A stretch of 64,000 bases of DNA from Bythopirellula sp. (GTDB lineage: Bacteria > Planctomycetota > Planctomycetia > Pirellulales > Lacipirellulaceae): contig OZ244170.1 of the NCBI GenBank assembly GCA_965216565.1, positions 4,000,001-4,064,000 on the forward strand, given 5' to 3'. Positions 9,842 to 24,117 of the stretch are shown here, piece after piece. Below the pieces are notes generated by a model. The model was not told where the DNA came from and did no database searches. It saw only the letters and a list, made by a program, of their open reading frames with translations. Within the stretch, counting starts at the first letter, position 1. Every line of letters starts with the position of its first letter. The translations under genes and the position numbers were made by a program.

Positions 9842-9890
9842 AGTTGTCGGATAGATGTTCGAGGGATGGGTGCTGGCAGTATAGTCCAAC

Positions 9891-9919
9891 AAAAAACGGG
9901 TCGCCCAGGAGACGACCCG
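9891..9919 (-). terminator. Rho-independent terminator after the PEP-CTERM gene
   Basis: Minus strand reads CGGGTCG-tctcctggg-CGACCCG-TTTTTT, 33 bp downstream of the stop at 9953. Confidence 0.8.
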
Positions 9920-9952
9920 CAGTGTCTAGATTGGATGCAATGAGGAGGGCAA

Positions 9953-10882
9953 TTAGTTGGATTGTTCCTCGTGCTTCTGTCGGCGTGACCGTCGAGTTGC
10001 CAGTAGCCCCGCGGCACCAGTAGCCAATAGTGCGAGACCAGAAGGTTCGGGAACTGAACCGGCGTGGATTGCAACGCCCGGTTGGGTTTCGAAGGCCCAG
10101 CCGTGAATCGTTAACTTGCTGTAGTCCCCTTCCAGTTCGACATCGACCCAGGCGAAACGCGAGTCGCTATTCACATCGTCGAACTGCACACCCAAGAATC
10201 CCCGCATGCCGGGAAACTGCCCGTACGATGTAAAGAAGGAAGTAGGACCTGTGCTGTAACCACCAAAACGACTATTCAGGGTGGGGTGGGTGTAGCTCGC
10301 TGTCACACCGCCACCGGTAGAAAGAAGCTGCTTGTAGTAGCGAACCGAGGAAGTGTTGACATTAATGCGATAGCTAGAACTCAGAAATCCAAGTGCCGCG
10401 TTACTACTGCCTCCAGTGAAGAGACCTGCGTCGACGTTGGTCGAGCTCTGCAATTTTCGAGCGTAGCCACTCGTAGCAATTTGCCCACCGAAACCGATGT
10501 TCGATGCGTAGGCGTTTCCTCTATTGGTTGTGTTCCTATACGACCGAAAGTAGTTGTAGAATTTTACAGTCGCCATGGTGCCGGCAGAATTTACGTTCGT
10601 ACTCGTGCCCCCCACGTTGAAGCCATCAGTGGTTGAAAAAGAAGTCTTATTCAACCCAAGCCGTAGGTCCGGCGTGCCATCGTTATTGAGGTCCAGATCG
10701 AATGTCTGACCTGGGAGAATCATGATGTTTTGATTTATCTTGCCACTGGTCGCTGCCTCGGCCGCCTGTCCGCCAACGAGTGCTGCGCTTGCCGCCGCGG
10801 AATAGCCAATGAGCTTCTTCTTGAGTTGGCTCTTTTGATTCTTGCGCGCGAGATGTTTCTTCGATGTGCGACGTTTACGCAT
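9953..10882 (-). CDS. PEP-CTERM-sorted surface protein
   Basis: Basic leader with signal peptide (..GYSAAASAALVGGQAAEA) and C-terminal VPEPSGLALLATGAAGLLATRRSRR. AAAGGGGGAG RBS. Confidence 0.88.
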   Translation of the reverse strand: MRKRRTSKKHLARKNQKSQLKKKLIGYSAAASAALVGGQAAEAATSGKINQNIMILPGQTFDLDLNNDGTPDLRLGLNKTSFSTTDGFNVGGTSTNVNSAGTMATVKFYNYFRSYRNTTNRGNAYASNIGFGGQIATSGYARKLQSSTNVDAGLFTGGSSNAALGFLSSSYRINVNTSSVRYYKQLLSTGGGVTASYTHPTLNSRFGGYSTGPTSFFTSYGQFPGMRGFLGVQFDDVNSDSRFAWVDVELEGDYSKLTIHGWAFETQPGVAIHAGSVPEPSGLALLATGAAGLLATRRSRRQKHEEQSN

Positions 10883-11183: not shown

Positions 11184-11582
11184 ATGGAAGCTGAAGCACG
11201 CAGTGATGATGCGTTGAGAGACTGTCCGTTTTGCGGGGAGAAAATCAAAGCGATTGCTAAAAAGTGCCGGTACTGTCGCGAGTATCTTGACGAAGAGATG
11301 CGAGCGCAAAACTTGAGGGAATCGATGCCCTCGGCAATCGACCGCTTCATCGCGCCGGACTATACGCCCTCCTATGCAATTACCGCTGGATATTTAGGTT
11401 TATTCTCCTTATTGCCTTTGATCGGAGTTCTGGCAATTGCTTTTAGCTGGCATGCCCTACGCCGACTTCGGCAAAATCCTGAACAACTTGGTCGAGGAAG
11501 AGCAATGTTTGGCTTGGTGATGGGGATCATTACCACATGCTTCTGGGGAGGCATAATCATCGCCGCCGCCATCAGTGGGTGA
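11184..11582 (+). CDS. Zinc ribbon + DUF4190-like membrane protein
   Basis: CPFCGEKIKAIAKKCRYC followed by hydrophobic helices and G.GRA.FG.VMG. Confidence 0.75.
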   Translation: MEAEARSDDALRDCPFCGEKIKAIAKKCRYCREYLDEEMRAQNLRESMPSAIDRFIAPDYTPSYAITAGYLGLFSLLPLIGVLAIAFSWHALRRLRQNPEQLGRGRAMFGLVMGIITTCFWGGIIIAAAISG

Positions 11583-11603: not shown

Positions 11604-14600
11604 TCAGTCCCTGCGGTAGACAGGTTCCTGGTCATCAATTTGCCAACCGACTACGTCATTCAAATTCAGGCGGAATGGCAGCCCTTGGCGGAGAAGCGGA
11701 AACAATTGCGATTCGCCCACCAACTCTCCTTCAAATTGCAGGCCCCCATAGTCTCGTGAGATTGAGTCAACCGCTAAGCGAAATTCTCCGCTCTTAACCT
11801 GTGGGATACAGTACGCTATCACCTCCAGTTGCGGATTCGCGGCCGACTCGAATCGTCTTGCTACCTCAGACAGGGCGAGTCTATGCTCTCGGTCACCAAC
11901 CACATTGGGCTGCTGTTGCCAGGAGCTTAGTGAAAGTCCCTGTCCAAGGACCAAGGGCACAACACCGCTTTGTATCCAGTGAGAAACCAAATCGTGATGT
12001 GCCGGATGCATTCGAAAACCACGCCAAGAGTCCACATCTTCGATACAGAGAATCCGGGAATGGCCTTTGGATAGTTCGCCTGTGACTCTTCGGGCAACAT
12101 CCTCTGCCTCTCGATGCTCGGTTTCGGAGAGGGCCACAGTCCCCACGACTAGCCAGTATTGGCACTTAGCGGCAGTTTCGAGTAATGGATGCGTTTCGCC
12201 GTCAAATTCCCAACCTCTGTCGAATGGCCCCTTTCCCGTTGCCAACCACACTCCAGATTTATCGAGCTGAATTGCAAAGCATCCGGAAGATTCCTCCCTG
12301 CGAGATCCCAGTGAAAGCAGTTTCTTGTCCGATAGTTTGTTTCTATCTAACGCGCTTTCGATCTGTTCGCTGTCCAAGTGCCAAGGTGTCTCGGAGAGAA
12401 AGACTGCATGAACAGTGTTAAAGTCATAGGGCAGTGCCACGGGGAATTCTCGTTGCAGTTCCCCGTATTCTTTGCCCCAAAAAACAGGCCCAGTTGATTC
12501 GCTGTGATAGAACGCAGTCGCCGACTCATCTTTCCTGGCGACTTCTAGTGCAAGTTGCTGCGCGCGGCGATGATTTTCTGTCGCTGCTGCCACGATTGCA
12601 AGATAGTCGACGTCGTTTGATTTCTGTTCGCGGCGGGACGCAAGCTGCTGAGCTTCTTTAAACATGTCCGTTCTTAGTAAGGCTGCAAAAAGACGAGCCT
12701 GATACAGGTCCCTCGTATAAGAGTACGAGAAGGAATCCTCCTCACCCTCCAGTAACTTCTTGGCGTGCTTGGCAAATGCCGAGTGGTCGCCTTGCTCCCA
12801 GGCAGCATTGGCCAAGTGGCGTGTTACTTGAGAGTCAGAGCGATGTGTGGTTCGATGGGCTAACACCAGTTGTTGCAGTCCATTCCAATCCTGGTCAGCG
12901 ATGAATTCACGTGCCAAGGTATTAAAGGCATCTTCCTTTGAGTTGTCAGACCCATAGTGCTGAGCCCAAGTTCCTGCAGCAATCGACAGTTGCAAAATGT
13001 GAGTATCGAAACCAGCACGACCGTTTGCCTCGGCCAACGATCGACCTTGCTGAAGCGACTCGATAGCCGAGTTCCACAACTGCTTTCCAGCCGCGAGTTC
13101 TGCTTTATAGTAATGCCATTGAGGATCGTCCGACTGATGTGCTTGGTGCAATTCGAGAAACGCTGCGACAGCTTCCCAGTGCCCTACTTGCGATGCCAAA
13201 TGGCACAGTTGTGCAAACCGGTTTCTCTTTTCGTCTGTAAGATTGTAGGCAGCGCTAAATCGTCCTTGCTTGTAGAGGACATTTGCCAGCATATAGTTGA
13301 GGGTCTCTGCATTGTACTGCTGGTTGTCATTTGGGTCCGATTCAGATGGTCGTTCTAACCCTTGACGCAAGAGCGCTTCCGCTTCTGCGTAACGACCATC
13401 CTCCTCTGCTAAGTGAGCAGAAAAATAGTAGCCCGCTAAGGAGTTGGGAAACTCGCGAACGAATTGAGCGCTAATCTGTTCGAGTTCTTCGAGCGAAAAT
13501 TGCGAGCCAATATCCTGGTATTCATAGACAATCGCGGTGAACAGCGCCTGCTTGCCGGGCGATTGATTCCAAGCCTCAACCCCGCGTCCAATGGAGCTCA
13601 TCGCGTCGACATAATTTTCGACGTAGCCATTGCGCGTCTGCTCGTCGTGCTCCGCTTGAAAGGCGAGTCGAAATTCGTCTGCAGCCTCTTGGAGTCTGCC
13701 AGCACTGCGCTGTGCAAGCCCGGCGACGTAATGACTTGCTGGCGACGTTGGGGAATTCCTTTGAAGATAGTCTCGCAGAAACGCAATCGCCTCTGGGTCT
13801 TGCCACGCAACCGATTGGGCCACCAAGGCTGCTGCTTTAGTTGGGTCCTTCTGACGCTCTAAGATGTTCTCAAACTGAGACTTCTGTTCAGCAGGCAACG
13901 CCAATAGCAGGGACTGCAAAGCGTTGGCGTGGTTAGGATCGATGCGGAGTATCTGCTCCCACTCCGCCAGGGCATTTTCATCTTGGCCCGAACGTTGGTA
14001 CAGTCGCGCCATTGTTTCACAAAGCTCAAGTGTCGGTCCCACACATTGCTTGTACTTCTTGGCATACTCGATGGCTCGTGCAGGATCTTTCCAGCGATAC
14101 GAATTCATCAGGCCGAAATAGGTCCCAGGTGTCTCTTGCGGTCGAGAGATTTGCTCGAAACATCGCAGTGCTTCGTCCTGTTCCCCAGCGGATTGCCAAA
14201 GATAACCAGCCGTCAGCCAACAGTACCCAACCATTTCCGGCGGGATCGGCTGGGTCTCGGCTTGCCGGAGTTTGTTTGTCGCATTTTCGTAGTCGCCCTC
14301 AGATATAAGTTGGTTCGATTCCGTGAGCAGATCGCTCCAGCGATTAAATCCTTCGTACAGATTGGTATCGAAGTGCCTTGCGTAAACTCCCCACTCTTCC
14401 GAGTAGTGAATGCCTTGATCCAACCGCTCCCAGTCGTACAGCTTCCACTGATCACCATCCCAACCAAGGATCAGACGCAATTCGGCACGGTCTTCTAGGT
14501 CGGGTAGTTTACCGTAAGCATAGATTATGCGAGTGTCGTGATCGTCCTCCGGAGTGAGTACACGAGCCACAACCAAATTGCTCCAGTAAGTATCTACATA

Positions 14601-15086
14601 AGCGGACTTTTTTAGCTGAGTTCGCAGATACCGCTTCTCCAAGAGATTATAGTTATCGAGATTTCCACCTAGCTCGATTCGCTTGAATAGCTTGTGGTGA
14701 TCAACCAAATTGCGGAATTGCTCGCTATCATTTGCCGCTGCAAATGCTCGCAGGTTGTTTAGTAGGCTTTCGATTGCTTGACGCTCTTCGACGTTTTCAA
14801 GCGGAATGCCAGGCAATACGTCATCAGAGGCCTCGAAGTTGCTAAACGCATCGACGGCTTCCGATTGCAGATGGGAAGTACTGTGCAAGCGGGTGACCGT
14901 CACGTTCTCGTCGGTTAACCGGGTCCGACGAATCACAAACCCAATAAATACGACAGTTGTGATTAGGCTAAGTAGAATTCCTCCCACGATGAGCAGGATT
15001 GGAATAACGCGGCGAGGTTTCTGGCGTTCGTCGATGGAGAGCCACTCGACATCCGAATCGAAAGAAGGATCGTTGCTGTGATTCAT
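11604..15086 (-). CDS. Large membrane-anchored TPR-repeat protein (last gene of the Ubl operon)
   Basis: 1160 aa with one N-terminal TM (VIPILLIVGGILLSLITTVVFIGFVI) and many TPR-like helices, e.g. ALAEWEQILRIDPNHANAL. Confidence 0.7.
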   Translation of the reverse strand: MNHSNDPSFDSDVEWLSIDERQKPRRVIPILLIVGGILLSLITTVVFIGFVIRRTRLTDENVTVTRLHSTSHLQSEAVDAFSNFEASDDVLPGIPLENVEERQAIESLLNNLRAFAAANDSEQFRNLVDHHKLFKRIELGGNLDNYNLLEKRYLRTQLKKSAYVDTYWSNLVVARVLTPEDDHDTRIIYAYGKLPDLEDRAELRLILGWDGDQWKLYDWERLDQGIHYSEEWGVYARHFDTNLYEGFNRWSDLLTESNQLISEGDYENATNKLRQAETQPIPPEMVGYCWLTAGYLWQSAGEQDEALRCFEQISRPQETPGTYFGLMNSYRWKDPARAIEYAKKYKQCVGPTLELCETMARLYQRSGQDENALAEWEQILRIDPNHANALQSLLLALPAEQKSQFENILERQKDPTKAAALVAQSVAWQDPEAIAFLRDYLQRNSPTSPASHYVAGLAQRSAGRLQEAADEFRLAFQAEHDEQTRNGYVENYVDAMSSIGRGVEAWNQSPGKQALFTAIVYEYQDIGSQFSLEELEQISAQFVREFPNSLAGYYFSAHLAEEDGRYAEAEALLRQGLERPSESDPNDNQQYNAETLNYMLANVLYKQGRFSAAYNLTDEKRNRFAQLCHLASQVGHWEAVAAFLELHQAHQSDDPQWHYYKAELAAGKQLWNSAIESLQQGRSLAEANGRAGFDTHILQLSIAAGTWAQHYGSDNSKEDAFNTLAREFIADQDWNGLQQLVLAHRTTHRSDSQVTRHLANAAWEQGDHSAFAKHAKKLLEGEEDSFSYSYTRDLYQARLFAALLRTDMFKEAQQLASRREQKSNDVDYLAIVAAATENHRRAQQLALEVARKDESATAFYHSESTGPVFWGKEYGELQREFPVALPYDFNTVHAVFLSETPWHLDSEQIESALDRNKLSDKKLLSLGSRREESSGCFAIQLDKSGVWLATGKGPFDRGWEFDGETHPLLETAAKCQYWLVVGTVALSETEHREAEDVARRVTGELSKGHSRILCIEDVDSWRGFRMHPAHHDLVSHWIQSGVVPLVLGQGLSLSSWQQQPNVVGDREHRLALSEVARRFESAANPQLEVIAYCIPQVKSGEFRLAVDSISRDYGGLQFEGELVGESQLFPLLRQGLPFRLNLNDVVGWQIDDQEPVYRRD

Positions 15087-15143: not shown

Positions 15144-15638
15144 CTAGACCCCTATTGTTTTCAGCGTCCAATTCCCGATTAGCACGGCGATCAAACATGA
15201 GCCAATCCAGGTAGGCCACTGTCGCTGCACTATCGTATGACGCATCTCACGGAGGCAAAAGATTCGATAAGGGATCTGCAAAACTACGGCAATCCAAAGC
15301 AGCCAGCCCACACGATGGAACTGGATTGACTTAGTCAAATCACCACTCGACAGTGCAATAAAACTTCTTGTCAAACCGCATCCCGGGCAATCGGTTTCGA
15401 ACCAATAGCGGCTGCCACACATGGGCGGGAGCTCGACGCCACCGATGGTTACCGCCGAGGTCGTTCCGCTATCTTGGACGGAGAGCACAAGTGAAAGACC
15501 AAGTATCACAATGCTTGCTATGAGCATCGTCCAATGTCGATCGCGCAATTGTCGAACAATCTTCGCGGAATTAAGACTGGACCCTGCCTGATGTTCTGCG
15601 ACGGTCGGTTCGAGAACCAATTGGACTTCGTCATTCAT
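15144..15638 (-). CDS. DUF2752-family membrane protein
   Basis: C..R......CPGCGLTRSF motif flanked by TM helices. Start placed at ATG 15638. Confidence 0.8.
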   Translation of the reverse strand: MNDEVQLVLEPTVAEHQAGSSLNSAKIVRQLRDRHWTMLIASIVILGLSLVLSVQDSGTTSAVTIGGVELPPMCGSRYWFETDCPGCGLTRSFIALSSGDLTKSIQFHRVGWLLWIAVVLQIPYRIFCLREMRHTIVQRQWPTWIGSCLIAVLIGNWTLKTIGV

Positions 15639-15661
15639 GCGGGTCGCAATTCTCAAAAAAA

Positions 15662-16387
15662 TCAGCCCATCGTTTCGTTAGATACAGAAGGAACAAACAC
15701 GGTATCGCACTGGATGCAGCGTAACTTGCGCCCTGCCATTTCGTGGCGAAAGCGATACTTCTTTTTGCAGCTGGGACACGTTACCGAAGCTGTTGATGCG
15801 GGGTTGGCCAGCGCTTCGGAAGATGGACTATTGTTGGCCGTGGGCGATGGGGCGGGAGGCACTGGGGGTTTGAACGGTTCGCTTAGATTTGCTTGAACGG
15901 GGGCTGCTGCGGTGCTGCTTTGCTCTTCCACCAACAGGCTAACCGGATCCAAAGGAAGCTTTTCCTGGTTGAGTTCCACCCACCGTGCCGCGTCTCCATT
16001 CAGTGGACTTTTCACGTTGTAAACCTGATAGGCCAGCAATTCGCCGATGCGCATTACGATGGACGCCAATGGTTCGCCGGAACTCCAGTGGTCGCCCACA
16101 CAAATGGCATGGGGAGCAATATTCGGATGAAATACGGGCGACAACATGCGGCATTGGGGTGGAGTGCGCGGATAATTCCTTGGCAACACAATCTCAACCA
16201 TGTGGCTTTTAACGCCTTGCAACTGGTCATCGACCATGCGAACACTATTAATACGAAACTCAAGTTGGTAGCGCTCGGGAGGATCTCCCTCGGCTTGGAT
16301 CAAACGGACTCGAGGATGAAGCCGCGCGTACTCTTTCAGTTTTGCATGGTCGGCAGTCAACCGTCTCAAACGTACCGTACTCATCAA
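15662..16387 (-). CDS. Ubiquitin-conjugating enzyme E2 (UBC fold) with a C-terminal zinc ribbon
   Basis: RLRRL N-terminal helix, LPRNYPRTPP, VFHPNI..AICV..HW (HPN motif plus catalytic Cys) and SPLN. Pro/Ser linker, then CPSC-x16-CIQC. Confidence 0.92.
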   Translation of the reverse strand: MMSTVRLRRLTADHAKLKEYARLHPRVRLIQAEGDPPERYQLEFRINSVRMVDDQLQGVKSHMVEIVLPRNYPRTPPQCRMLSPVFHPNIAPHAICVGDHWSSGEPLASIVMRIGELLAYQVYNVKSPLNGDAARWVELNQEKLPLDPVSLLVEEQSSTAAAPVQANLSEPFKPPVPPAPSPTANNSPSSEALANPASTASVTCPSCKKKYRFRHEMAGRKLRCIQCDTVFVPSVSNETMG

Positions 16388-17694
16388 TCGCTCTCCTCAG
16401 CTTCTTGATCGGTAACGATATTTTGACTGGTGATGTCAAACCGTTCAGGGATCAAATCGACCAGCGTGCTAAAGTCGATCGCAAATCCCAGCCCTTCGGC
16501 AATCCTCTTTTCAGCAGTCATAGAGTTGATGCCGACTAGGTGTCCCTGAGAGTCGTAGAGTCCCCCGCCACTATTGCCGGGGTTGATTGGTGCGGAGGTC
16601 TGCAAGATCTTAAACTTCATATTCCCGCGCCTTTGACTTCGAATTTGCGAGAGGCTACCTGACGTATGGGTCCAGCCCAACCCGTGGGGATTGCCTACAG
16701 CAAATACTTCATCGCCAATCTTAGCTTTTTCGTTGTTGTCCCAATTTGCCTCTTGGACGTCTCGATTAGAAAGTGGAGCTGATACGATGGCCAGATCGAT
16801 ACCGTGGGGAGCGACCCATTCAACTGCGCCGGGAATCGACACTTGACTAATCGACATCACCATGACACTGGCGAGGTCGGACAGATTTTTTGGAGCACTT
16901 GTCGTCGAATCGGAGTAGTTCTGGTCGATGACATGCCGGTTCGTCACGATGTAGGCCTGTCCATTGTTGACTTTTAGCACAACGCCCGAGCCGATGCCGG
17001 CACGTCCGAACCCGGCATCAATTTGAATTAAGACATTCGCCCGCATGGCACGTGCGATGTACTCAGGCAAGTCGTCCAGTGAACTGGCATCAATGGCGAG
17101 TTCCGACATAGAGACGGCAGCCCGCGGTGTGCCAAAGTAGCTGGACAGCCCAATAGACCAGCCTACGACGTCTAACAGTCCCAACACCATCGCGGCAACG
17201 GCTAGTCCCATACCCCGTCGATTTTCGCGATGGATCACCAGGGCGATGCAACCGATCAGGATTGCGATAAGTCCCGTGATTATACCGAACAGAGGAATGC
17301 CCAGCAGTGCGACGACCATCGCCCAAATGCTCGCCCGATTCCACCTCCTATCAACTTTCCTGGCGTCTTCTGCCTCAAGACTATTGAACGATTTAGGCGT
17401 CGGGAGTGGCTCGGTGCTTTGAAGTTCTTCGCGAGTGATCGTCAGCGGCGTTTTTTCGCTGCTGGCAATCGTAGCTTTGCCCTCGGTACACTCATACGCG
17501 CTGCAGCCGTGGCCCTCTTGCCAACAATTTTCGTGGTGGACCGCTCCGCAAGACGTGCAGACCGCTACGGGGATGCTGAGGCTAATCTCTGCGCTGCATT
17601 TAGCACATAACGCCCCCGCCTCTCTCTCACCGGCATTGCGTATGATGGGGTCGTTGTGTGACACGTGTTTCACCAAGCTCAAAAGACTATGCAT
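16384..17694 (-). CDS. Prokaryotic RING-like domain + DUF4190-like TM region + trypsin-like (S1C) serine protease
   Basis: CAKC-x12-CTSCGAVHHENCW..GHGCSAYEC, then TM helices, then the triad TNRHV / DLAIV / NPGNSGG. Confidence 0.85.
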   Translation of the reverse strand: MHSLLSLVKHVSHNDPIIRNAGEREAGALCAKCSAEISLSIPVAVCTSCGAVHHENCWQEGHGCSAYECTEGKATIASSEKTPLTITREELQSTEPLPTPKSFNSLEAEDARKVDRRWNRASIWAMVVALLGIPLFGIITGLIAILIGCIALVIHRENRRGMGLAVAAMVLGLLDVVGWSIGLSSYFGTPRAAVSMSELAIDASSLDDLPEYIARAMRANVLIQIDAGFGRAGIGSGVVLKVNNGQAYIVTNRHVIDQNYSDSTTSAPKNLSDLASVMVMSISQVSIPGAVEWVAPHGIDLAIVSAPLSNRDVQEANWDNNEKAKIGDEVFAVGNPHGLGWTHTSGSLSQIRSQRRGNMKFKILQTSAPINPGNSGGGLYDSQGHLVGINSMTAEKRIAEGLGFAIDFSTLVDLIPERFDITSQNIVTDQEAEESD

Positions 17695-17712: not shown

Positions 17713-18423
17713 TCATATCTCGGAGACAACCACAAACAGTAGCATCAACGCAGAATAGATCGCAGACAGTACGATGGCCGTCCATCCCATGATACTAAAA
17801 AGTGGCCCGCATCGCTTCAGTTTGTCGCGTCTGGGAAGAATGTAACCAAGGGCGATCAATAGCATCAGAGGAGCACAAAGCCCCAACAGCGAGCAGATAA
17901 AGATTCCTGTCACCCATTGTTTCATGGATTCCAGCTCATCGCTGAGCTTACCTTGACGACGAAGATCTCCCGCCGACATGGGATCGACTGTCTCAAAATC
18001 TGTTTGGCAGTATCTGCACCGCAGAGCAATCGATTTTATTTTCTCCCCGCATGCTGGACAACTCTTCGTGTCTCCCCAGGCGGTGAGAGGTGCTTGCACC
18101 GAGGCTTCCGACTTGTCGATTATCGATGCCTGGTCACAACCATAGGTTCCACAGCCACCCACTTCTGACCAACACTCTCGATGGTGCACTTGATCGCAAC
18201 TTGGACAGGTGACGCAATCTTCGCTGACACCAATGTCACTCTGACAAATGGGGCACAGCGCATCTCGCCCAGCATCCAGGGTCACCGAGTTTAGGAGCTT
18301 CAGGTCGGCGGTAACTGCTAGACCCTGTTCGCAGCTGGGACAGCGGAACGAACGATTGGCGCGGTCCTCGGGCAAACGGATCTTCGCACCGCACTGGCAA
18401 GTAATCGTTGTGCTGCTGTCCAC
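17713..18423 (-). CDS. Zn ribbon + prokaryotic RING-like domain + Zn ribbon + TM (candidate membrane E3)
   Basis: CQC..CPSC; CPIC-x12-CPSCDQVHHRECW..VGGCGTYGC; CPACGEKIKSIALRCRYC; C-terminal hydrophobic helices. Confidence 0.85.
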   Translation of the reverse strand: MDSSTTITCQCGAKIRLPEDRANRSFRCPSCEQGLAVTADLKLLNSVTLDAGRDALCPICQSDIGVSEDCVTCPSCDQVHHRECWSEVGGCGTYGCDQASIIDKSEASVQAPLTAWGDTKSCPACGEKIKSIALRCRYCQTDFETVDPMSAGDLRRQGKLSDELESMKQWVTGIFICSLLGLCAPLMLLIALGYILPRRDKLKRCGPLFSIMGWTAIVLSAIYSALMLLFVVVSEI

Positions 18424-18427
18424 TTGT

Positions 18428-18967
18428 TTACGGCGCCTCAGCCACTACGCTTAGCAGGACTCGCACCACCATCCAGAATCCCTGCACGGCAAGTGAAACC
18501 AGAAACATCTTTTTGCCCTTTGGTTTACCCTGAATCATCCAGATGATGCCTACGATACACCCAATTCCGGAACAGAGAATAGCAATCACCCACTCACCGG
18601 TGGACAGGTCGTCGTCTTCGTAACCTCCAGCGGAGCTGGTCTTCTTTACCTTCTTTTGTTCTTGTTTTTTGAGATCGGGATCAAAGATCTCTCCGCAGAA
18701 CCGACACTTGACCGCCTTGCGAAGAATCATTTCGCCACAGGCGGAACAGGGCTTGCGGTCGTCTTCTTGAACCTCGCCGGAAGTCAAATCTGCTTCGCTC
18801 AGTCCAGCCAGCGGCGACGCGAGTGGGTCGAGTGCATCGTCCTCTTGTTGAAGATTCGGGATCTGCAGCACACCACCGCACTTGGGACATTTGGCTTTTT
18901 TCCCGGCGGAACTATCTGGTGTGCTGAGCGTGGCACCACAGCCGTTGCAAGTCACTTTGATAGACAC
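18428..18967 (-). CDS. Double zinc-ribbon membrane protein
   Basis: CNGC..CPKC and CSAC..CRFC with two C-terminal TM segments. GTG start with a GGGGAG RBS. Confidence 0.8.
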   Translation of the reverse strand: MSIKVTCNGCGATLSTPDSSAGKKAKCPKCGGVLQIPNLQQEDDALDPLASPLAGLSEADLTSGEVQEDDRKPCSACGEMILRKAVKCRFCGEIFDPDLKKQEQKKVKKTSSAGGYEDDDLSTGEWVIAILCSGIGCIVGIIWMIQGKPKGKKMFLVSLAVQGFWMVVRVLLSVVAEAP

Positions 18968-19092: not shown

Positions 19093-20076
19093 TCATCGGA
19101 GATCACTCCTTAAATCGATAGCGGCCATGAGAGACTTGAGCAACCGAAGGAACCACACAAAGGCAACGATGGCCGCCACAAGTATCGTTATGCCGAGAAT
19201 TCCCAAGACAATCCCAGCTTCCTGATCTCCCAAAACCACACTAAGAATACCAATTCCAACGGTGCCGAAGAATAATACGACACCGAAGATTATGAATCTC
19301 GCCGCACTGCGAGCCAAAACATCGTCATCAAGATGTATTGCCGTGCGGCGAATAAACAGAATGAAGAAAACGTTTCCAATAGTTGAGCAGAGGCTTCCGA
19401 GAGACTTGAGAGCCTCTGACTCCATCCCACTACCAAACATAGAAAGGCCTGCACTTGCCATCGTGCAGAAAAAGGCGGTCAACGCAAAAGCACGGGCTCC
19501 ACTGTTTGCAGGAACCGCGGTGGTCCGCGCTTGTCCAATGAGTATGGTTAGGCCGGCTCCTAGAATGGTCAGTCCGGCAACTCCGAATACTGTTAGAAAC
19601 AAGACTGACGGAGCCTTGTTATCTTCTTCCACAAAGGCACCAGTCACCATCAGTGCCACCATCATCGCAACGAAGCAGACAAAGACAATGACTATGCCGT
19701 AATAGATATTCGCCAATCCTCCTCGGACCTTATACCAACTGGGATCATTCGGATCGAATGCTCCGCCACTCGTCCTGGCCATCGATTTATCGAAAATCGT
19801 GCTGCAAAAACGGCACTTCACGGCCGTGCGAATGATCATCTCGCCACACGCGGGACAAGGCTTACGTTCGTCTTGGTCCTCTTCCCCAGCAGTTGTTTCT
19901 TCCTCACCATAGCCTCCGAGAGGCGATGCGATTGGCTCGAGTGCGTCGTCCTCTTGTTGAGGGCCGGGGATCTGCAACATACCGCCACACTTGGGGCATT
20001 TCGCGCGCTTGCCGGCAGCAGAGTCGGGCGTGCTGAGTTTACTTCCACAGCCGCTGCAAGTCACTTCGATGGGCAC
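19093..20076 (-). CDS. Double zinc-ribbon polytopic membrane protein
   Basis: CSGC..CPKC and CPAC..CRFC with about six C-terminal hydrophobic helices. The N-terminus is paralogous to 18428..18967. Confidence 0.8.
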   Translation of the reverse strand: MPIEVTCSGCGSKLSTPDSAAGKRAKCPKCGGMLQIPGPQQEDDALEPIASPLGGYGEEETTAGEEDQDERKPCPACGEMIIRTAVKCRFCSTIFDKSMARTSGGAFDPNDPSWYKVRGGLANIYYGIVIVFVCFVAMMVALMVTGAFVEEDNKAPSVLFLTVFGVAGLTILGAGLTILIGQARTTAVPANSGARAFALTAFFCTMASAGLSMFGSGMESEALKSLGSLCSTIGNVFFILFIRRTAIHLDDDVLARSAARFIIFGVVLFFGTVGIGILSVVLGDQEAGIVLGILGITILVAAIVAFVWFLRLLKSLMAAIDLRSDLR

Positions 20077-20149: not shown

Positions 20150-20286
20150 CTAGAACCAGTTTCAAAAACCGAAAACAGTTCTATGTAAGCCGACGGCGTT
20201 AGCCGCGGGTGGCGTAAGTCTAGGTGTTGTTCTGATGCTACCCGACGCTAGCGCGGTCGGCTCATTGGTTTTGAAACAGCTTCTAG
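20150..20286. mobile_element. 137-bp MITE-like element with CTAG-ended imperfect terminal inverted repeats and an internal inverted REP-like pair
   Basis: Left end CTAGAACCAGTTTCAAAA vs reverse complement of right end CTAGAAGCTGTTTCAAAA. Internal GTAAGCCGACGGCGTTAGCCGCGGG vs reverse complement ATGAGCCGACCGCGCTAGCGTCGGG. Confidence 0.7.
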
Positions 20287-21350
20287 GCATTCTTAGACTC
20301 CTTTAGGGAGAACTCCAATACAGTTTTCCCAAGGACAATCTGATCTCCATCTTCCAGAATCCGGTTGGTTACGGGAATACCATTCACGTAGGTTCCCTCA
20401 GGCGAATCGCAATCTTCGATCACAAACCGGCCTCCTCGATTGACGATCTGCGCGTGCCGAGGTTCGATGGCGTCGTCTTTGAATAGATAGATATCAGCCT
20501 TGGGCGAACTTCCCAAGAAGGTGGTGTCCTTGAAAAGGATAAACTGCTTGCCGGCCAACGGGCCCTTACGCATCATTAGCCAAGCGGTCTTTGTCCAGCC
20601 CTCGACAAGTCCGACAAACAATCCGACCGACGCACCAATCACGGCAAACCCAACGCCACGGCTATACGTGGCCTGTCCGTCTTCGGTAAGCAGCACCAGG
20701 CTAATGGGATCGAAAAGCAGACCCCCCAGCAATCCACCCAGTACCGCGCCGACTAGGCCATTGATGATTACTTTTTTCTCGCGCAACGCAATGCCTTGGC
20801 CAATCCCGGCAGGAATCGAGACTATAGCCCACGCCGCTCCACGGCCCATCATCAATACCAATAGAGCGAGCCCTGTGGGCATGACATTGGGATCGGGATC
20901 TTCCCATAGACTTTCTGCCAAAACGCTCATGATTCCAAATACAAATCCTGTGGGGATCAGAGCCATGACTCCACCAAGGAACCCAACGCCGAGTCCCACG
21001 AAGCCACAACGAATTGCCCGCAGAGGATTTCGGCAGATGATCCCTTCGGCAGAGCCCAAGAGCAGGCCAATGAAACCAGCAACCGTGGGGAACAGTAGGA
21101 GCTTGGCGGCCAAGCCTTCATCTTCCAGATCGTTGTCGTCGACCCAGGGTTCCAAAATTCCCCACCCGATGAGACCACCCACCATGGCGGCGAGGGAGAG
21201 ATAGAACCAGTTTGCGTAAATCACCTTCACGATCCACGACTGATGTCCCATCTCGCCGAGGTCACGGCTGAGGTATTGCTGCATCTCGACGTATTGCTCA
21301 ACGTCGGGTGAATGCAGATCAGTGGACGTGATACGGATTGGATCCGACAC
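20283..21350 (-). CDS. Polytopic Gly-rich membrane protein with a C-terminal FHA-fold domain
   Basis: About six TM helices, then GPLAGKQF..LGSS..DI......IEPRHAQI.....F.IED.DS..GTYVNG......L.DGD.I.LGKT.L.F. Confidence 0.85.
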   Translation of the reverse strand: MSDPIRITSTDLHSPDVEQYVEMQQYLSRDLGEMGHQSWIVKVIYANWFYLSLAAMVGGLIGWGILEPWVDDNDLEDEGLAAKLLLFPTVAGFIGLLLGSAEGIICRNPLRAIRCGFVGLGVGFLGGVMALIPTGFVFGIMSVLAESLWEDPDPNVMPTGLALLVLMMGRGAAWAIVSIPAGIGQGIALREKKVIINGLVGAVLGGLLGGLLFDPISLVLLTEDGQATYSRGVGFAVIGASVGLFVGLVEGWTKTAWLMMRKGPLAGKQFILFKDTTFLGSSPKADIYLFKDDAIEPRHAQIVNRGGRFVIEDCDSPEGTYVNGIPVTNRILEDGDQIVLGKTVLEFSLKESKNA

Positions 21351-21355
21351 AAAGA

Positions 21356-22573
21356 CTACCTTTCGTCCGGTTCTGGCGAATCGGGAACTTCTAGTTCGGG
21401 TTTACGAGGCTCGAGACTTGGTGCCGCGGGAAGTTTATCTGCCAGGGGAATCGGGGTTGTTTGTTTTTTAAGATTCGATTCCGGAACTGTTCCTTTCTCG
21501 TCGCTTTGCGATTTCCTCTCTTTGTCCGCTTGCTCGAGTATCTTTAGCTGCTTGGCTTGGAGACGTCTGGAAAGCTCCGCCAGGGCCCGGCGTTCGCGGT
21601 CGTCGAAGCTGTATCTTGAGCTAACCTCGTCCAGCCGCTTCGATATTCCCAAGAGATTTCCGATCAGCAGTTTGCGATCGTTGGCGAGTTCTTTGAGTTG
21701 CTCCTCGGAGAGTTCGTTGGTCTCGGTCGGCATCGATTTCATCTGCTTGGTGGCAGAGGCCAGAAATTTCTGCACCTCGGCCAGTTCTTCGCGCAAGCCA
21801 AGTTTCGTCAGGCGGAAATCGGTGTAGTTGAACACCACACCGTCGACAATCGCTTGACGCTCCCAGGAAGACTTCATGCCGGCAAGCAGATAGCCCAAAA
21901 GGAACAACGCCAACAGGGCCAGCGGCGTCGCCGCATACGAAAAGAATCCAGGTTCCTCAGCGGGGCCGATTCCATTAGCACCCTGTGCGTTTGCCGAACC
22001 CTCCTTGGCAGCCTCGGCGGCGGGATTGCGGATGCTGGCTTCGACGGTGCGAATGGTATTGCCAATCCAATAGTGACTGATGGGAGTCGGCTTACCATTT
22101 TTCCAGGCAAAGACTCCCTCTAAATCTCTCACTGGATCGACAACATAGGCGACTTGGCCGGGACCCGAGAAAAAATGCTCGTGGATGAAGCAGTCGCGGT
22201 CGGAGAGGAAAATGCCGAAGTCGGGATGCGAATGGTACCAGCCGACAATCCGTTTGTCTTCGAATCGAGAATCCATCTCGCTATTGATCTGGCTCCACGA
22301 TTCGTGCGTGAAGGTGACCTCGGCAAATTTGCTAGTGGCGCTCTCGCAGCGAATGAAATCTTCGGCCACAGCATAGGGACCATCGTCGTCCTGGTACCAC
22401 AATCCGACCAGCACCCCGCAGATTTCAACGGAGGTGTCTTGCTTGGCATGCTTGGATATTCCTTGATGGACCTCAGGCGAAATGTGAAATCGAAAATCCG
22501 ACTTGCCACTGGCAGGAAACTGGCTTTGCTGGAGTTGTTCGTCGGCCAAGCCTCCGACATCAATATCACTCAT
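21356..22573 (-). CDS. JAB/MPN+ (JAMM) metallopeptidase with a TM anchor and coiled-coil C-terminus
   Basis: EICGVLVG ... VGWYHSHPDFGIFLSDRD (E-xn-HxH-x7-S-xx-D) and TM TPLALLALFLLGYLLAGM. The start ATG at 22573 overlaps the end of the E1 gene and has a GGGGAG RBS. Confidence 0.92.
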   Translation of the reverse strand: MSDIDVGGLADEQLQQSQFPASGKSDFRFHISPEVHQGISKHAKQDTSVEICGVLVGLWYQDDDGPYAVAEDFIRCESATSKFAEVTFTHESWSQINSEMDSRFEDKRIVGWYHSHPDFGIFLSDRDCFIHEHFFSGPGQVAYVVDPVRDLEGVFAWKNGKPTPISHYWIGNTIRTVEASIRNPAAEAAKEGSANAQGANGIGPAEEPGFFSYAATPLALLALFLLGYLLAGMKSSWERQAIVDGVVFNYTDFRLTKLGLREELAEVQKFLASATKQMKSMPTETNELSEEQLKELANDRKLLIGNLLGISKRLDEVSSRYSFDDRERRALAELSRRLQAKQLKILEQADKERKSQSDEKGTVPESNLKKQTTPIPLADKLPAAPSLEPRKPELEVPDSPEPDER

Positions 22574-23780
22574 GCCTTGCTCCCCCATTTGCTGTCGGAT
22601 CCTGCAACAACGGCCCCAGCAATTCTTGCCGGTCTCCTGCAAATTCGTAGTATCTCGCGTCCATGCCCGCACGTCCTGCTAGGATATCCCATGGTGGGAT
22701 TCCGAGTTCGCCGAGTGTTCGATCAAGCAGAGACGAGTCTTCGCCTAGCGTGTGATAAATATTGGGAGTGCGCGGTTCGTTGCATTTTTTGCAGCGGCCC
22801 TGGTCTTCAGAGACTTTACCTAGCGAGGTATAGATTTCCTCGGTCTCATCACAATTAGTACAGGTAAGTGTGGCCAGGAGGTCTTGATTGGTTTCAATCA
22901 CCGCTGCGGCTCCCAAGTCGGATCGGACGCGCTCCAAGAACTCGCCCACGGTTGTCTTTGCAATCTGCCAGTCTAGTTCTTCCACCGGTTCGTAGGGCTC
23001 ATGCGAGGGGCACTCCTCAAGTCTTGAATAGCTCACCAGATAACTTTGGTGATTGGTGCCATCGAGCACGAATCCTTGTCCGGCAATCGACGGTAGTTGA
23101 TGTAGCATTTTTACTGCTTCTTGCACCTGAATGCCAGCAATTATTGAGGAAGAAGTTGGCGTGGTGGGTACTTTCCCCTGTTGCATCTCTTCGCGAGTGA
23201 GCAGTGCGCAACTCCTACGGGCCTCAAGCATTTGCCAATCGATCTCGCTCATGGTGCATTCGTAACACGGCCCCGAGGCGGCGTCGAATACCCGCGCAAC
23301 CCCGTCGAGCCGTTCGATAGCTCCATCGATCCACGGTTTCCCAACCCTAGCTGCCGATAGATTGATGGCCACGCGAGCCTCGCGATTGTCGAGACCGCCG
23401 AGAATCACATCAGCCCAGCGATAAACTCCCAAACCCAAATCATAAACGATGTTGCCTTGGAACGACTGGGTGCGAAGCTCAGGATAGATGTCCCGTGCGC
23501 GTTCCGTAGCCACTTCCGCTTTGGCCCGGCCACAATCATCGCCGCGGTACAGAACAGAACGAGACAGATTCGAGTTTTCAATGGTATCCAAATCGGCAAC
23601 GAACATCTTGCCCACGCCGAGAAGGGCCAAGTTTTTGATGATTTCGTTTCCCAGTGCCCCCGCACCAATCACCAGAGCTTTCGAGGAAGTTAGAAGCTGT
23701 TGATCCCACCAACCAATCAGATCGAAGCGAGAGAAGCGTCCTTCCTCTAGCGCCGAACCAATCTTAATGGGATCCGTCAT
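22566..23780 (-). CDS. E1-like ubiquitin-activating enzyme (ThiF/UBA) with extra C-terminal Zn-binding domain
   Basis: IGAGALG, DLDTIENSNLSR, GLDNREAR, GPCYEC, candidate thioester Cys in RRSCA, CPSH, and CTNC..CKKC. Start placed at ATG 23780 (GGAG RBS). Confidence 0.92.
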   Translation of the reverse strand: MTDPIKIGSALEEGRFSRFDLIGWWDQQLLTSSKALVIGAGALGNEIIKNLALLGVGKMFVADLDTIENSNLSRSVLYRGDDCGRAKAEVATERARDIYPELRTQSFQGNIVYDLGLGVYRWADVILGGLDNREARVAINLSAARVGKPWIDGAIERLDGVARVFDAASGPCYECTMSEIDWQMLEARRSCALLTREEMQQGKVPTTPTSSSIIAGIQVQEAVKMLHQLPSIAGQGFVLDGTNHQSYLVSYSRLEECPSHEPYEPVEELDWQIAKTTVGEFLERVRSDLGAAAVIETNQDLLATLTCTNCDETEEIYTSLGKVSEDQGRCKKCNEPRTPNIYHTLGEDSSLLDRTLGELGIPPWDILAGRAGMDARYYEFAGDRQELLGPLLQDPTANGGARHE

Positions 23781-23796: not shown

Positions 23797-24117
23797 TCAG
23801 TCGCACCCGACGCCAAGGATTGTGCATGGAGAATGGAACAGACGCCCCACCCCGGCGGTTATTTCCGGCTGGAGTCTAAGGATATCACCCTCTTCGACGT
23901 GGGCGGATTCCAGCGTGTCTGTATCCAAGAGCTGCCGGCCAGATTTTTTGTGATGAAACTTGTAGCTCATTGCCTGACCATCCGGGCTGTGTCGAGGCAG
24001 ATTCATGCGATCGATCAAGACGGCAATCAGACGATTCACTTCGGCATCGGGAGGAACTTCTACCAATTGACGTTTGTTGCCGGTTGCGTCCCAGACTTCG
24101 ATTTTGATATCACTCAT
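23797..24117 (-). CDS. Ubiquitin-like beta-grasp protein (YukD/EsaB-like) with a C-terminal extension
   Basis: IKIEVWDATG...VEVP...GRQL...TL....V.EGDILRLQPEITAG followed by VGRLFHSPCTILGVGCD*. First gene of the E1/JAB/E2 operon. Confidence 0.85.
   Translation of the reverse strand: MSDIKIEVWDATGNKRQLVEVPPDAEVNRLIAVLIDRMNLPRHSPDGQAMSYKFHHKKSGRQLLDTDTLESAHVEEGDILRLQPEITAGVGRLFHSPCTILGVGCD

Follow-up and report, generated by a model that had tools for sequence, protein, structure and literature searches.

The window, that is, the whole stretch of 64,000 nucleotides of Bythopirellula sp. analysed here, contains on its minus strand a run of co-oriented genes in the order Ubl, E1, JAB, FHA, two zinc-ribbon genes, a RING gene that we call RING2, a fusion of RING, membrane helices and protease, E2 and DUF2752, so that the fusion is the eighth gene of the run. 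The gaps between the genes are at most 18 bases except for two, of 206 and 125 bases. Later accounts (PMC4197634, PMC3417536), citing Burroughs et al. 2011, mention operons of Ubl, E1, E2, RING and JAB from members of the Planctomycetes, Actinobacteria and Acidobacteria, and bacterial RING E3s are described as rare and such operon families as uncharacterised (PMC10557695, as far as its available text goes). The features of the locus are as follows.

15144..15656, minus strand: DUF2752 membrane protein (Pfam)
15662..16384, minus strand: E2 conjugating enzyme with HPN motif, Cys seven residues on, and C-terminal zinc ribbon (Pfam, motif)
16384..17694, minus strand: RING-TM-protease gene (ORF), probable start GTG at 17664, 426 aa
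16447..17064, minus strand: HtrA/DegS-type serine protease domain with triad H254/D300/S375, without PDZ, presumably periplasmic (Pfam, structure match, alignment)
17134..17211, minus strand: third membrane helix, residues 162-187, with conserved acidic D175 (model, alignment)
17212..17235, minus strand: Lys/Arg-rich loop, residues 154-161, cytoplasmic by the positive-inside rule (alignment)
17236..17337, minus strand: two hydrophobic helices, 120-135 and 137-153, forming a hairpin with a near-invariant Gly/Pro turn, the first part of DUF4190 (model, alignment)
17422..17445, minus strand: short conserved motif in the linker (residues 84-91; a strand and a helix cap), also present at the N-terminus of the FHA protein (motif search)
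17488..17607, minus strand: C4HC3 Prok-RING_1 finger, C30 to C69, presumably cytoplasmic, with K32 at the Ile position of E2-binding RINGs (Pfam, alignment, fold)
17713..18423, minus strand: RING2, with zinc ribbon, Prok-RING_1, zinc ribbon and membrane helices, the best candidate for an E2-recruiting E3 (Pfam, motif scan)
18428..18967, minus strand: double zinc-ribbon membrane protein (Pfam, hydropathy)
19093..20076, minus strand: double zinc-ribbon multi-helix membrane protein (Pfam, hydropathy)
20283..21350, minus strand: multi-helix membrane protein with C-terminal FHA domain and an N-terminal motif resembling the protease linker motif (Pfam, hydropathy)
21356..22573, minus strand: JAB/JAMM peptidase, single membrane helix, extended C-terminal tail; the ATG at 22573 is the probable start (Pfam)
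22566..23780, minus strand: E1 activating enzyme of the ThiF family (Pfam)
23797..24117, minus strand: YukD-like Ubl, conserved end motif closing in Ala-Gly, then a variable tail (Pfam)

Counted from its first ATG, the fusion ORF (16384-17694, minus strand) encodes 436 aa. The GTG at 17664 is probably the true start, giving 426 aa, because the protein called in the collection has this length, GGTGA sits directly 5' of the GTG, and residues 1-11 have a pLDDT below 50 in the structure model, which reaches a mean pLDDT of 85 for the whole protein. A Pfam profile search matched Prok-RING_1 at residues 27-72, DUF4190 at 122-181 and Trypsin_2 at 235-389. The preliminary description of this DNA had proposed an N-terminal Cys/His domain, a DUF4190-like region and an intact protease triad without PDZ, as well as an overlap of the stop codon with the E2 start; Pfam and an alignment of relatives (A1) confirm the former, and the overlap of TGA with the ATG of E2 amounts to one base. 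Alignment A1 consists of the query and 103 near-full-length relatives (n=104) out of 120 listed by protein search; 17 were left out, namely the entry of the window itself, two close relatives and 14 shorter proteins, and this biases the set towards RING-bearing forms. In addition, a genome scan gave 503 relatives, from which the best 80 were taken, all titled Planctomycetota. Among these 80 loci, RING and protease lie within a single ORF in 68; in the other 12, a contig end cuts three, the RING is in a different frame in six, one has a deletion, and the RING is truly absent in two. The fusion of RING, membrane helices and protease in one bacterial chain is real.

All five parts of a conjugation system, Ubl, E1, E2, RING and JAB, are intact in this operon. 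The HPN-Cys motif of E2 is intact in 88 of 91 relatives and the JAMM motif in 65 of 67 JAB relatives; 61 of the 67 have the membrane helix and the long tail (median 166 residues). Of the 41 loci with a Ubl match, 40 keep the Ala-Gly end motif and a variable tail behind it, which points to processing by JAB. The FHA domain lacks the usual phosphothreonine-binding residues. A scan for promoters and terminators stayed at chance level (6 vs 6.2 and 10 vs 10.4). Regarding the loci with enough flank among the best 80 of the 503 relatives, E2 is nearby in 62/70, RING2 in 68/69 and DUF2752 in 57/66, while E1, JAB and FHA are each near in 38/44 and Ubl in 37/44. In the genomes without an adjacent E2 a close E2 was found elsewhere in 10 out of 10, and E1 was present in all nine genomes checked, six of them without a nearby E1. 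It had been stated beforehand that a fusion usually found without E1 or E2 neighbours would speak against a role in conjugation, and a survey across genomes had been suggested; the survey shows the contrary, the fusion travelling with E1, E2, JAB and Ubl in these loci. Judged from motifs and neighbourhoods, the predicted catalytic parts of the operon are all intact and co-inherited.

The distribution of the system is patchy. A RING of this kind occurs in 56 of 301 genomes of the phylum, and the fusion in two of 24 genomes of the same genus and in none of 16 others of the order. Out of 15 genomes sampled from this survey, the fusion is present in 13, and the other two carry a protease without a RING in its place. 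In the ESM Atlas two clusters, of 68 and 50 members, show the fusion architecture, which is commonest in Planctomycetota. Some fused forms carry Riflebacteria labels. This patchiness would suit a conflict or anti-phage system: at the envelope the periplasmic protease would detect or cleave a protein of the invader, and the cell would respond by Ubl conjugation. Characterised bacterial E1/E2 systems are indeed reported as antiviral, with the uncharacterised ones predicted to be so (PMC10557695, available part). Such a role would be compatible with the membrane complex proposed below; we regard it as possible, though we lean against it. Inspection by eye of the 45 largest clusters of ORFs flanking 97 loci brought out no defence or mobility gene as a recurring neighbour, the GC content of the operon equals the local value within the window, and PADLOC gave weak generic matches only, to E1, JAB and protease (BilD 25 bits), and none for 8 of the 11 proteins. 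Moreover, E1, E2 and Ubl are strongly conserved (column identity of E2 78%), which fits a steady cellular job; the alternative purpose would be envelope quality control.

The RING of the fusion has the predicted zinc ligands C30-x2-C33-x12-C46-x2-C49-x3-H53-H54-x2-C57-W58-x5-C64-x4-C69, in cross-brace order; C4HC3 is given as the pattern of prokaryotic RINGs in the available account (PMC11354881). Each of the eight ligands is kept in 102-104 of the 104 members of A1, and this near-invariance indicates that the RING matters where it is present. The score for Prok-RING_1 (PF14446) is 28.4 bits for the whole fusion protein, against a cut-off of 29.1, and 32.6 bits, above the cut-off, for the RING as a domain in the genome search; all 104 members of A1 match at E<=0.01. 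The best structural match of the domain model is the ZNRF1 RING (Z 7.1, rmsd 1.7 A, 54 residues), followed by TFIIH p44 (Z 6.1), RNF12 (Z 6.0) and C1 domains (Z 5.3-5.5), all below Z 8. Foldseek ranked RINGs and one C1 domain at the top, the best E of 0.038 being not significant, and the RING profile gave weak and mixed matches against solved structures. It is clear from the model that the Cys/His domain folds as a RING-like treble clef, as had been supposed from its ligands, its sub-type being less certain and the fold alone being no sign of ligase activity.

A RING fold could also serve without any part in Ubl transfer, for instance as a C1-like lipid sensor or as a TFIIH-p44-like scaffold that positions the protease. 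Here the ranking of p44 and C1 domains near E3 RINGs has to be considered, together with the weak match of 9/104 members to Pfam C1_1 and with the forms in which zinc ribbons take the place of the RING. A profile search gave 150 representatives, of which 97 are full length by our rule: 58 have a RING, 24 have none (some being cut or unrelated) and 15 have a zinc ribbon alone. We nevertheless find such a module quite unlikely, since the genome has two Prok-RING domains in all, both inside this operon, and the second one, RING2, is a clear paralogue of the fusion RING (probability 99.3, E 1.6e-20).

The gene of RING2 lies directly upstream of the fusion gene and was overlooked in the preliminary description. 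Canonical RINGs close with a Cys-Pro-x-Cys-Arg pattern, and RING2 does not have it. Its residues at the expected E2 contacts were counted in an unselected scan, in which 75 RING motifs were out of frame with a nearby protease; six of them, being frameshifted or read-through protease genes, were set aside, and 69 RING2 motifs remain. Ile, Val or Leu stands between Cys1 and Cys2 in 65 of the 69, and Val, Ile or Met three residues past the Trp in all 69. The corresponding count of 66/70 in the RING2 alignment A3 is circular, because the selection pattern of A3 included the Ile position, and hence the unselected counts are used instead. In the RING of the fusion the hydrophobic E2-contact residue is absent and K32 stands between Cys1 and Cys2. 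Among the protease RINGs of 65 loci, Ile, Leu or Val occurs there in none, and Val, Ile or Met three residues past the Trp in one. Leu or Val is found at the E2-contact position in 12 of the 104 close homologues, and a hydrophobic or aromatic residue in 15 of the 58 distant fused representatives. W58 is invariant in A1 and lies on the central helix; its register is directly after the sixth ligand, unlike the Trp position in canonical RINGs. Column identity is 54% for the fusion RING and 64% for RING2. In the RING E3 of a reconstituted archaeal cascade, according to the available account, a hydrophobic patch between Cys1 and Cys2 touches the E2 and the substitution I30Q abolishes activity (PMC5654768), and we infer that the archaeal I30 is equivalent to the Cys1-Cys2 residue here. 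By these residues RING2, and not the protease-borne RING, looks like the main ligase of the operon. It had been suggested that the RING of the fusion chain could carry out the ligation; this is not borne out, the E2-contact hallmarks being in the adjacent RING2 and absent here. A complex prediction of E2 (alignment A4) with fusion residues 11-100 scored 0.00; it was run without controls and is counted neither way.

The RING is moreover dispensable in some lineages. On a protease-domain tree (n=92), nine changes of the RING label are needed, at least three being forced by well-supported branches, and one group of 11 is RING-less (support 90); this tree is a quick, unrooted one, from which eight representatives were removed by hand because their N-termini were cut, degenerate or unrelated, and one row was dropped by the program. 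RING2 is detectable in 88 of the 89 loci with enough upstream DNA, and in five of the 89 (L055, L059, L093, L096 and L119) the protease is RING-less; these five come from roughly three lineages, and there are kin and two duplicates among the 89. In L119, Ubl, E1, JAB, FHA, RING2, RING-less protease and E2 are consecutive and the protease frame opens at the RING2 stop, and in L093 a separate RING-DUF4190 gene follows E2. A metagenome scan with the RING-less proteases gave mostly ordinary HtrA genes; operon parts were present in 13 of 80 loci, and a RING-less protease in only two of these 13. Besides the protease itself, the RING-less forms keep the three helices and the motif of residues 84-91. 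This linker motif is found in 103 of the 104 A1 members, in 61 of 63 N-termini of FHA proteins and in 11 of 14 RING-less proteases, with shuffled means near 1, a control that overstates the contrast because the pattern was written after the sequences were seen. The motif looks like a shared docking element, so far as such sharing can tell. It was also considered as a phosphothreonine site for FHA and rejected, Ser being about as frequent as Thr (50 vs 53) and the FHA domain being without binding residues.

These results bear on the single-chain device suggested earlier, in which the RING of the fusion is an active E3 that binds E2~Ubl, and one chain both tags and cuts or its protease signals to its own ligase. 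The fold, with E3 RINGs as the top matches, the invariant Trp on the RING helix, the translational coupling of the fusion gene to E2, the Phe, Tyr or Val between Cys1 and Cys2 of some distant members, and the fact that the fusion is the commonest form (58/97) would all agree with it. Nevertheless we hold it to be unlikely, in view of the polar Ile position in close relatives (Ile/Leu/Val 0/65), of a RING surface conserved less than that of RING2, and of the RING being missing from intact operons such as L119, with the repeated gains or losses on the tree; the claim that a single chain couples ligation with proteolysis is weakened. The coupling, if any, is probably at the level of a membrane complex rather than of a single chain. 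An in-frame RING2-protease fusion was found in one of six long ORFs checked (L042), in one assembly, which is weak as proof of a RING heterodimer and was set aside.

As for the membrane segment, a 19-residue hydropathy scan of the fusion shows two membrane peaks only, and the structure model divides the first of them into a hairpin, which gives three helices in total; three separate hydrophobic stretches are also seen, by eye, ahead of the protease in distant relatives. The position of D175 is Asp or Glu in 103/104. The mean number of Lys and Arg is 3.5 before the hairpin and 2.2 in the loop after it, where at least one is present in 104/104; in the stretch after helix 3 it is 0.2, with a mean of 3.1 Asp and Glu (A1, n=104). 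By the positive-inside rule the N-terminus and the basic loop would be cytoplasmic and the protease outside, whether the hairpin crosses the membrane or dips into it, and the net number of crossings is presumably odd. A cytoplasmic RING and a periplasmic protease thus form the likeliest topology from charge bias and predicted fold, in agreement with the earlier suggestion for an odd number of TM helices. A hairpin of the CD225/IFITM kind was considered and rejected, with one weak match in a relative (E 1e-4) and 0/104 members, and is a resemblance only. With a 34-residue hydrophobic stretch that crosses once, both RING and protease would be cytoplasmic, and the protease might be a Ubl-gated effector or a Ubl processor. 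The two hydropathy peaks, the shortness of the first two helices (16-17 residues) and the trypsin-like cytoplasmic domains known in defence systems (weak PADLOC matches) could be read in this way. It is very unlikely in our judgement, as the basic loop past the hairpin and the acidic stretch past helix 3 are conserved throughout A1, the nearest solved structures are periplasmic domains, and Ubl processing is already covered by JAB.

These structures, closest to the protease model, are the domains of DegS, DegP and DegQ. H254, D300 and S375 are each conserved in 104/104. With regard to HtrA membership, the trypsin-fold domain and the His/Asp/Ser triad are present and the C-terminal PDZ is absent: PDZ was sought in the 104 members with Pfam and is not among the 10 families matched by any of them. 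The tail after the protease domain is short (median 17.5 residues, maximum 69, in A1), so that there is no room for a PDZ domain. Against the NCBIfam HtrA models the fusion lies far under every cut-off, the best being 104 of 416 bits, and the public names DegS or DegP on these proteins are annotation carry-over.

Taken together, the reading that we prefer, with a probability of roughly 0.5, is that the fusion may serve a Ubl-conjugation complex in the membrane as its protease subunit and carry an accessory RING, with RING2 recruiting E2~Ubl. The JAB peptidase would trim the Ubl tail and expose the terminal Gly, E1 and then E2 would be charged with the trimmed Ubl, and RING2 would bring E2~Ubl to the inner membrane on its cytoplasmic side. 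The three-helix anchor and the short linker motif would keep the fusion protein in the complex, with its own RING acting as an accessory partner, for a dimer or a substrate contact, and not as an E2-binding ligase. As RING and protease would be on opposite sides of the membrane, the same piece of a substrate would be out of reach of both; the PDZ-less periplasmic protease would instead cleave a membrane-spanning substrate in its outer part, in the manner of site-1 cleavage by DegS, and the cytoplasmic part of the same substrate would be Ubl-tagged. Processing a membrane protein from two sides in this way, with the cut outside and the tag inside, seems the likeliest job from what the sequences suggest. 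The absence of PDZ means that control of the protease would probably come from the complex, and one possible substrate is the JAB protein of the operon, whose long tail would be periplasmic. A fuller version, which we consider doubtful, is a machine spanning the envelope: a cytoplasmic Ubl ligase of two RINGs and the periplasmic protease would act from both sides on one membrane substrate, with signalling across the membrane, with a heterodimeric E3 and a shared docking motif. If true, it would be a bacterial counterpart of ERAD or of regulated membrane proteolysis.

The preferred reading of a membrane complex leads to two predictions, namely that RING2 and not the protease RING drives E2 discharge, and that the protease acts on the far side of the membrane. 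With the complete operon and with close homologues of the fusion in the cultured planctomycetes Gimesia, Lacipirellula, Botrimarina and Aeoliella, the question is open to experiment. If both predictions are true, bacteria have coupled ubiquitin-like tagging to the proteolysis of membrane proteins, and this would be relevant to how membrane E3 ligases arose. In the literature searched we found no experimental study of the fusion or of this bacterial operon class, and no reconstituted bacterial RING E3 cascade, the tested bacterial systems working without a RING.

The operon class was already predicted in 2011, and the fusion architecture is visible in the public Pfam annotation of many proteins. 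Burroughs, Iyer and Aravind in 2011 reportedly covered membrane-anchored planctomycete RINGs and are said perhaps to have shown a peptidase fusion. As far as the accounts of that work go, the PF14446 operons share with the present one the domain family, the set of Ubl, E1, E2, RING and JAB, and a sporadic spread; the present one differs by two paralogous RINGs with differing surfaces, by an HtrA-type protease whose gene has a fixed place ahead of E2, and by mostly membrane-anchored parts. Bil and type II CBASS likewise have bacterial E1, E2, Ubl and JAB and form real conjugates, and unlike the present operon they are described, in the available text, without RING, membrane anchors or protease (PMC10557695); the system-specific profiles (BilA-D, Cap2/Cap3 with cyclase) were not matched by the operon proteins in PADLOC. 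A separate tri-ligase system with a caspase-like effector is also on record (PMC7159879, available account). The Caldiarchaeum subterraneum system has a whole E1-E2-RING cascade with a JAB peptidase (ubiquitin, E1, E2, small RING and Rpn11), and a hydrophobic Cys1-Cys2 residue and the Trp of its RING mediate E2 binding; from what is described it is soluble, with one RING, true ubiquitin and no protease fusion, and its hydrophobic residue is missing from the protease-borne RING here (PMC5654768). DegS, DegP and DegQ share with the fusion the protease fold and the triad and are its best structural and sequence matches, and differ from it in that here PDZ is absent and a RING and a three-helix anchor stand at the N-terminus. 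DegS, too, has a membrane anchor and a periplasmic protease, the arrangement presumed for the fusion. In eukaryotes, the membrane RING E3s MARCH/Doa10 and PA-TM-RING have a C4HC3 RING followed by membrane helices, as in the fusion; their outer domains are not known to be active proteases, and this is an analogy only, with homology limited to the RING fold. Finally, in the heterodimeric RINGs of BRCA1-BARD1 one of the pair lacks the E2-contact Ile, which is again only an analogy to the pair of RING2 and the protease-borne RING.

Within the RING-protease, a RING domain joined by a three-helix DUF4190 membrane segment to an HtrA-type protease, the membrane segment was examined in an alignment of the query and 103 near-full-length relatives.

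Window 17134-17236, minus strand: RING-protease membrane segment containing Cys149 and position 175.

Cys149 is found in all 104 members, and all but one of these (103) carry an acidic residue, Asp or Glu, at position 175, a pattern of residues which suggests a partner-binding or assembly site within the bilayer.

Two apparent rearrangements, each at a single related locus, involve the same gene.

L042:9842-11860, plus strand: RING2, the adjoining second RING protein, and RING-protease in one 673-aa frame (one assembly).
L031:7469-9627, plus strand: JAB running into the middle of the protease's RING through an apparent deletion.

The apparent deletion takes out the FHA, zinc-ribbon and RING2 genes, and the locus is either a decayed operon or a misassembly.

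The operon is flanked in the window by the following genes.

Window 11604-15086, minus strand: TPR protein of 1160 aa whose N-terminal part includes a hydrophobic stretch, 57 bases after DUF2752.
Window 11184-11582, plus strand: small zinc-ribbon and DUF4190 gene, facing the operon.
Window 6980-10882, minus strand: PEP-CTERM protein and 970-aa protein, downstream of the operon.

Relatives of the TPR protein lie near the operon in few loci (6/97), either upstream or downstream. A protein like the small gene's product is fused in frame behind Ubl in one related locus. Judged by eye, the 970-aa protein looks like a phosphodiesterase/sulfatase-TPR-sulfotransferase fusion.

Elsewhere in planctomycetes, five genomes (G017, G043, G062, G079 and G206) each give at least 21 RING-profile matches, spread over many contigs and lying in frames as long as 1400 aa, which by profile matching is a large expansion of Prok-RING-like domains. 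Distant operons (L082, L083, L087 and L088) carry additional RING or zinc-ribbon membrane gene copies in the interval from FHA to RING2. L082, for example, has an exact duplicate of a RING there and L083 has six zinc-ribbon genes; this variable slot could set the substrate range.

Window 20283-21350, minus strand: membrane protein with FHA domain (residues compared across relatives).

Gly-Arg is among the canonical phosphothreonine-binding residues of FHA domains. Here Gly-Ser replaces it in 74 of 77 relatives and the usual phosphothreonine-binding residues are absent, therefore the operon's FHA domain is probably a phospho-independent adaptor.
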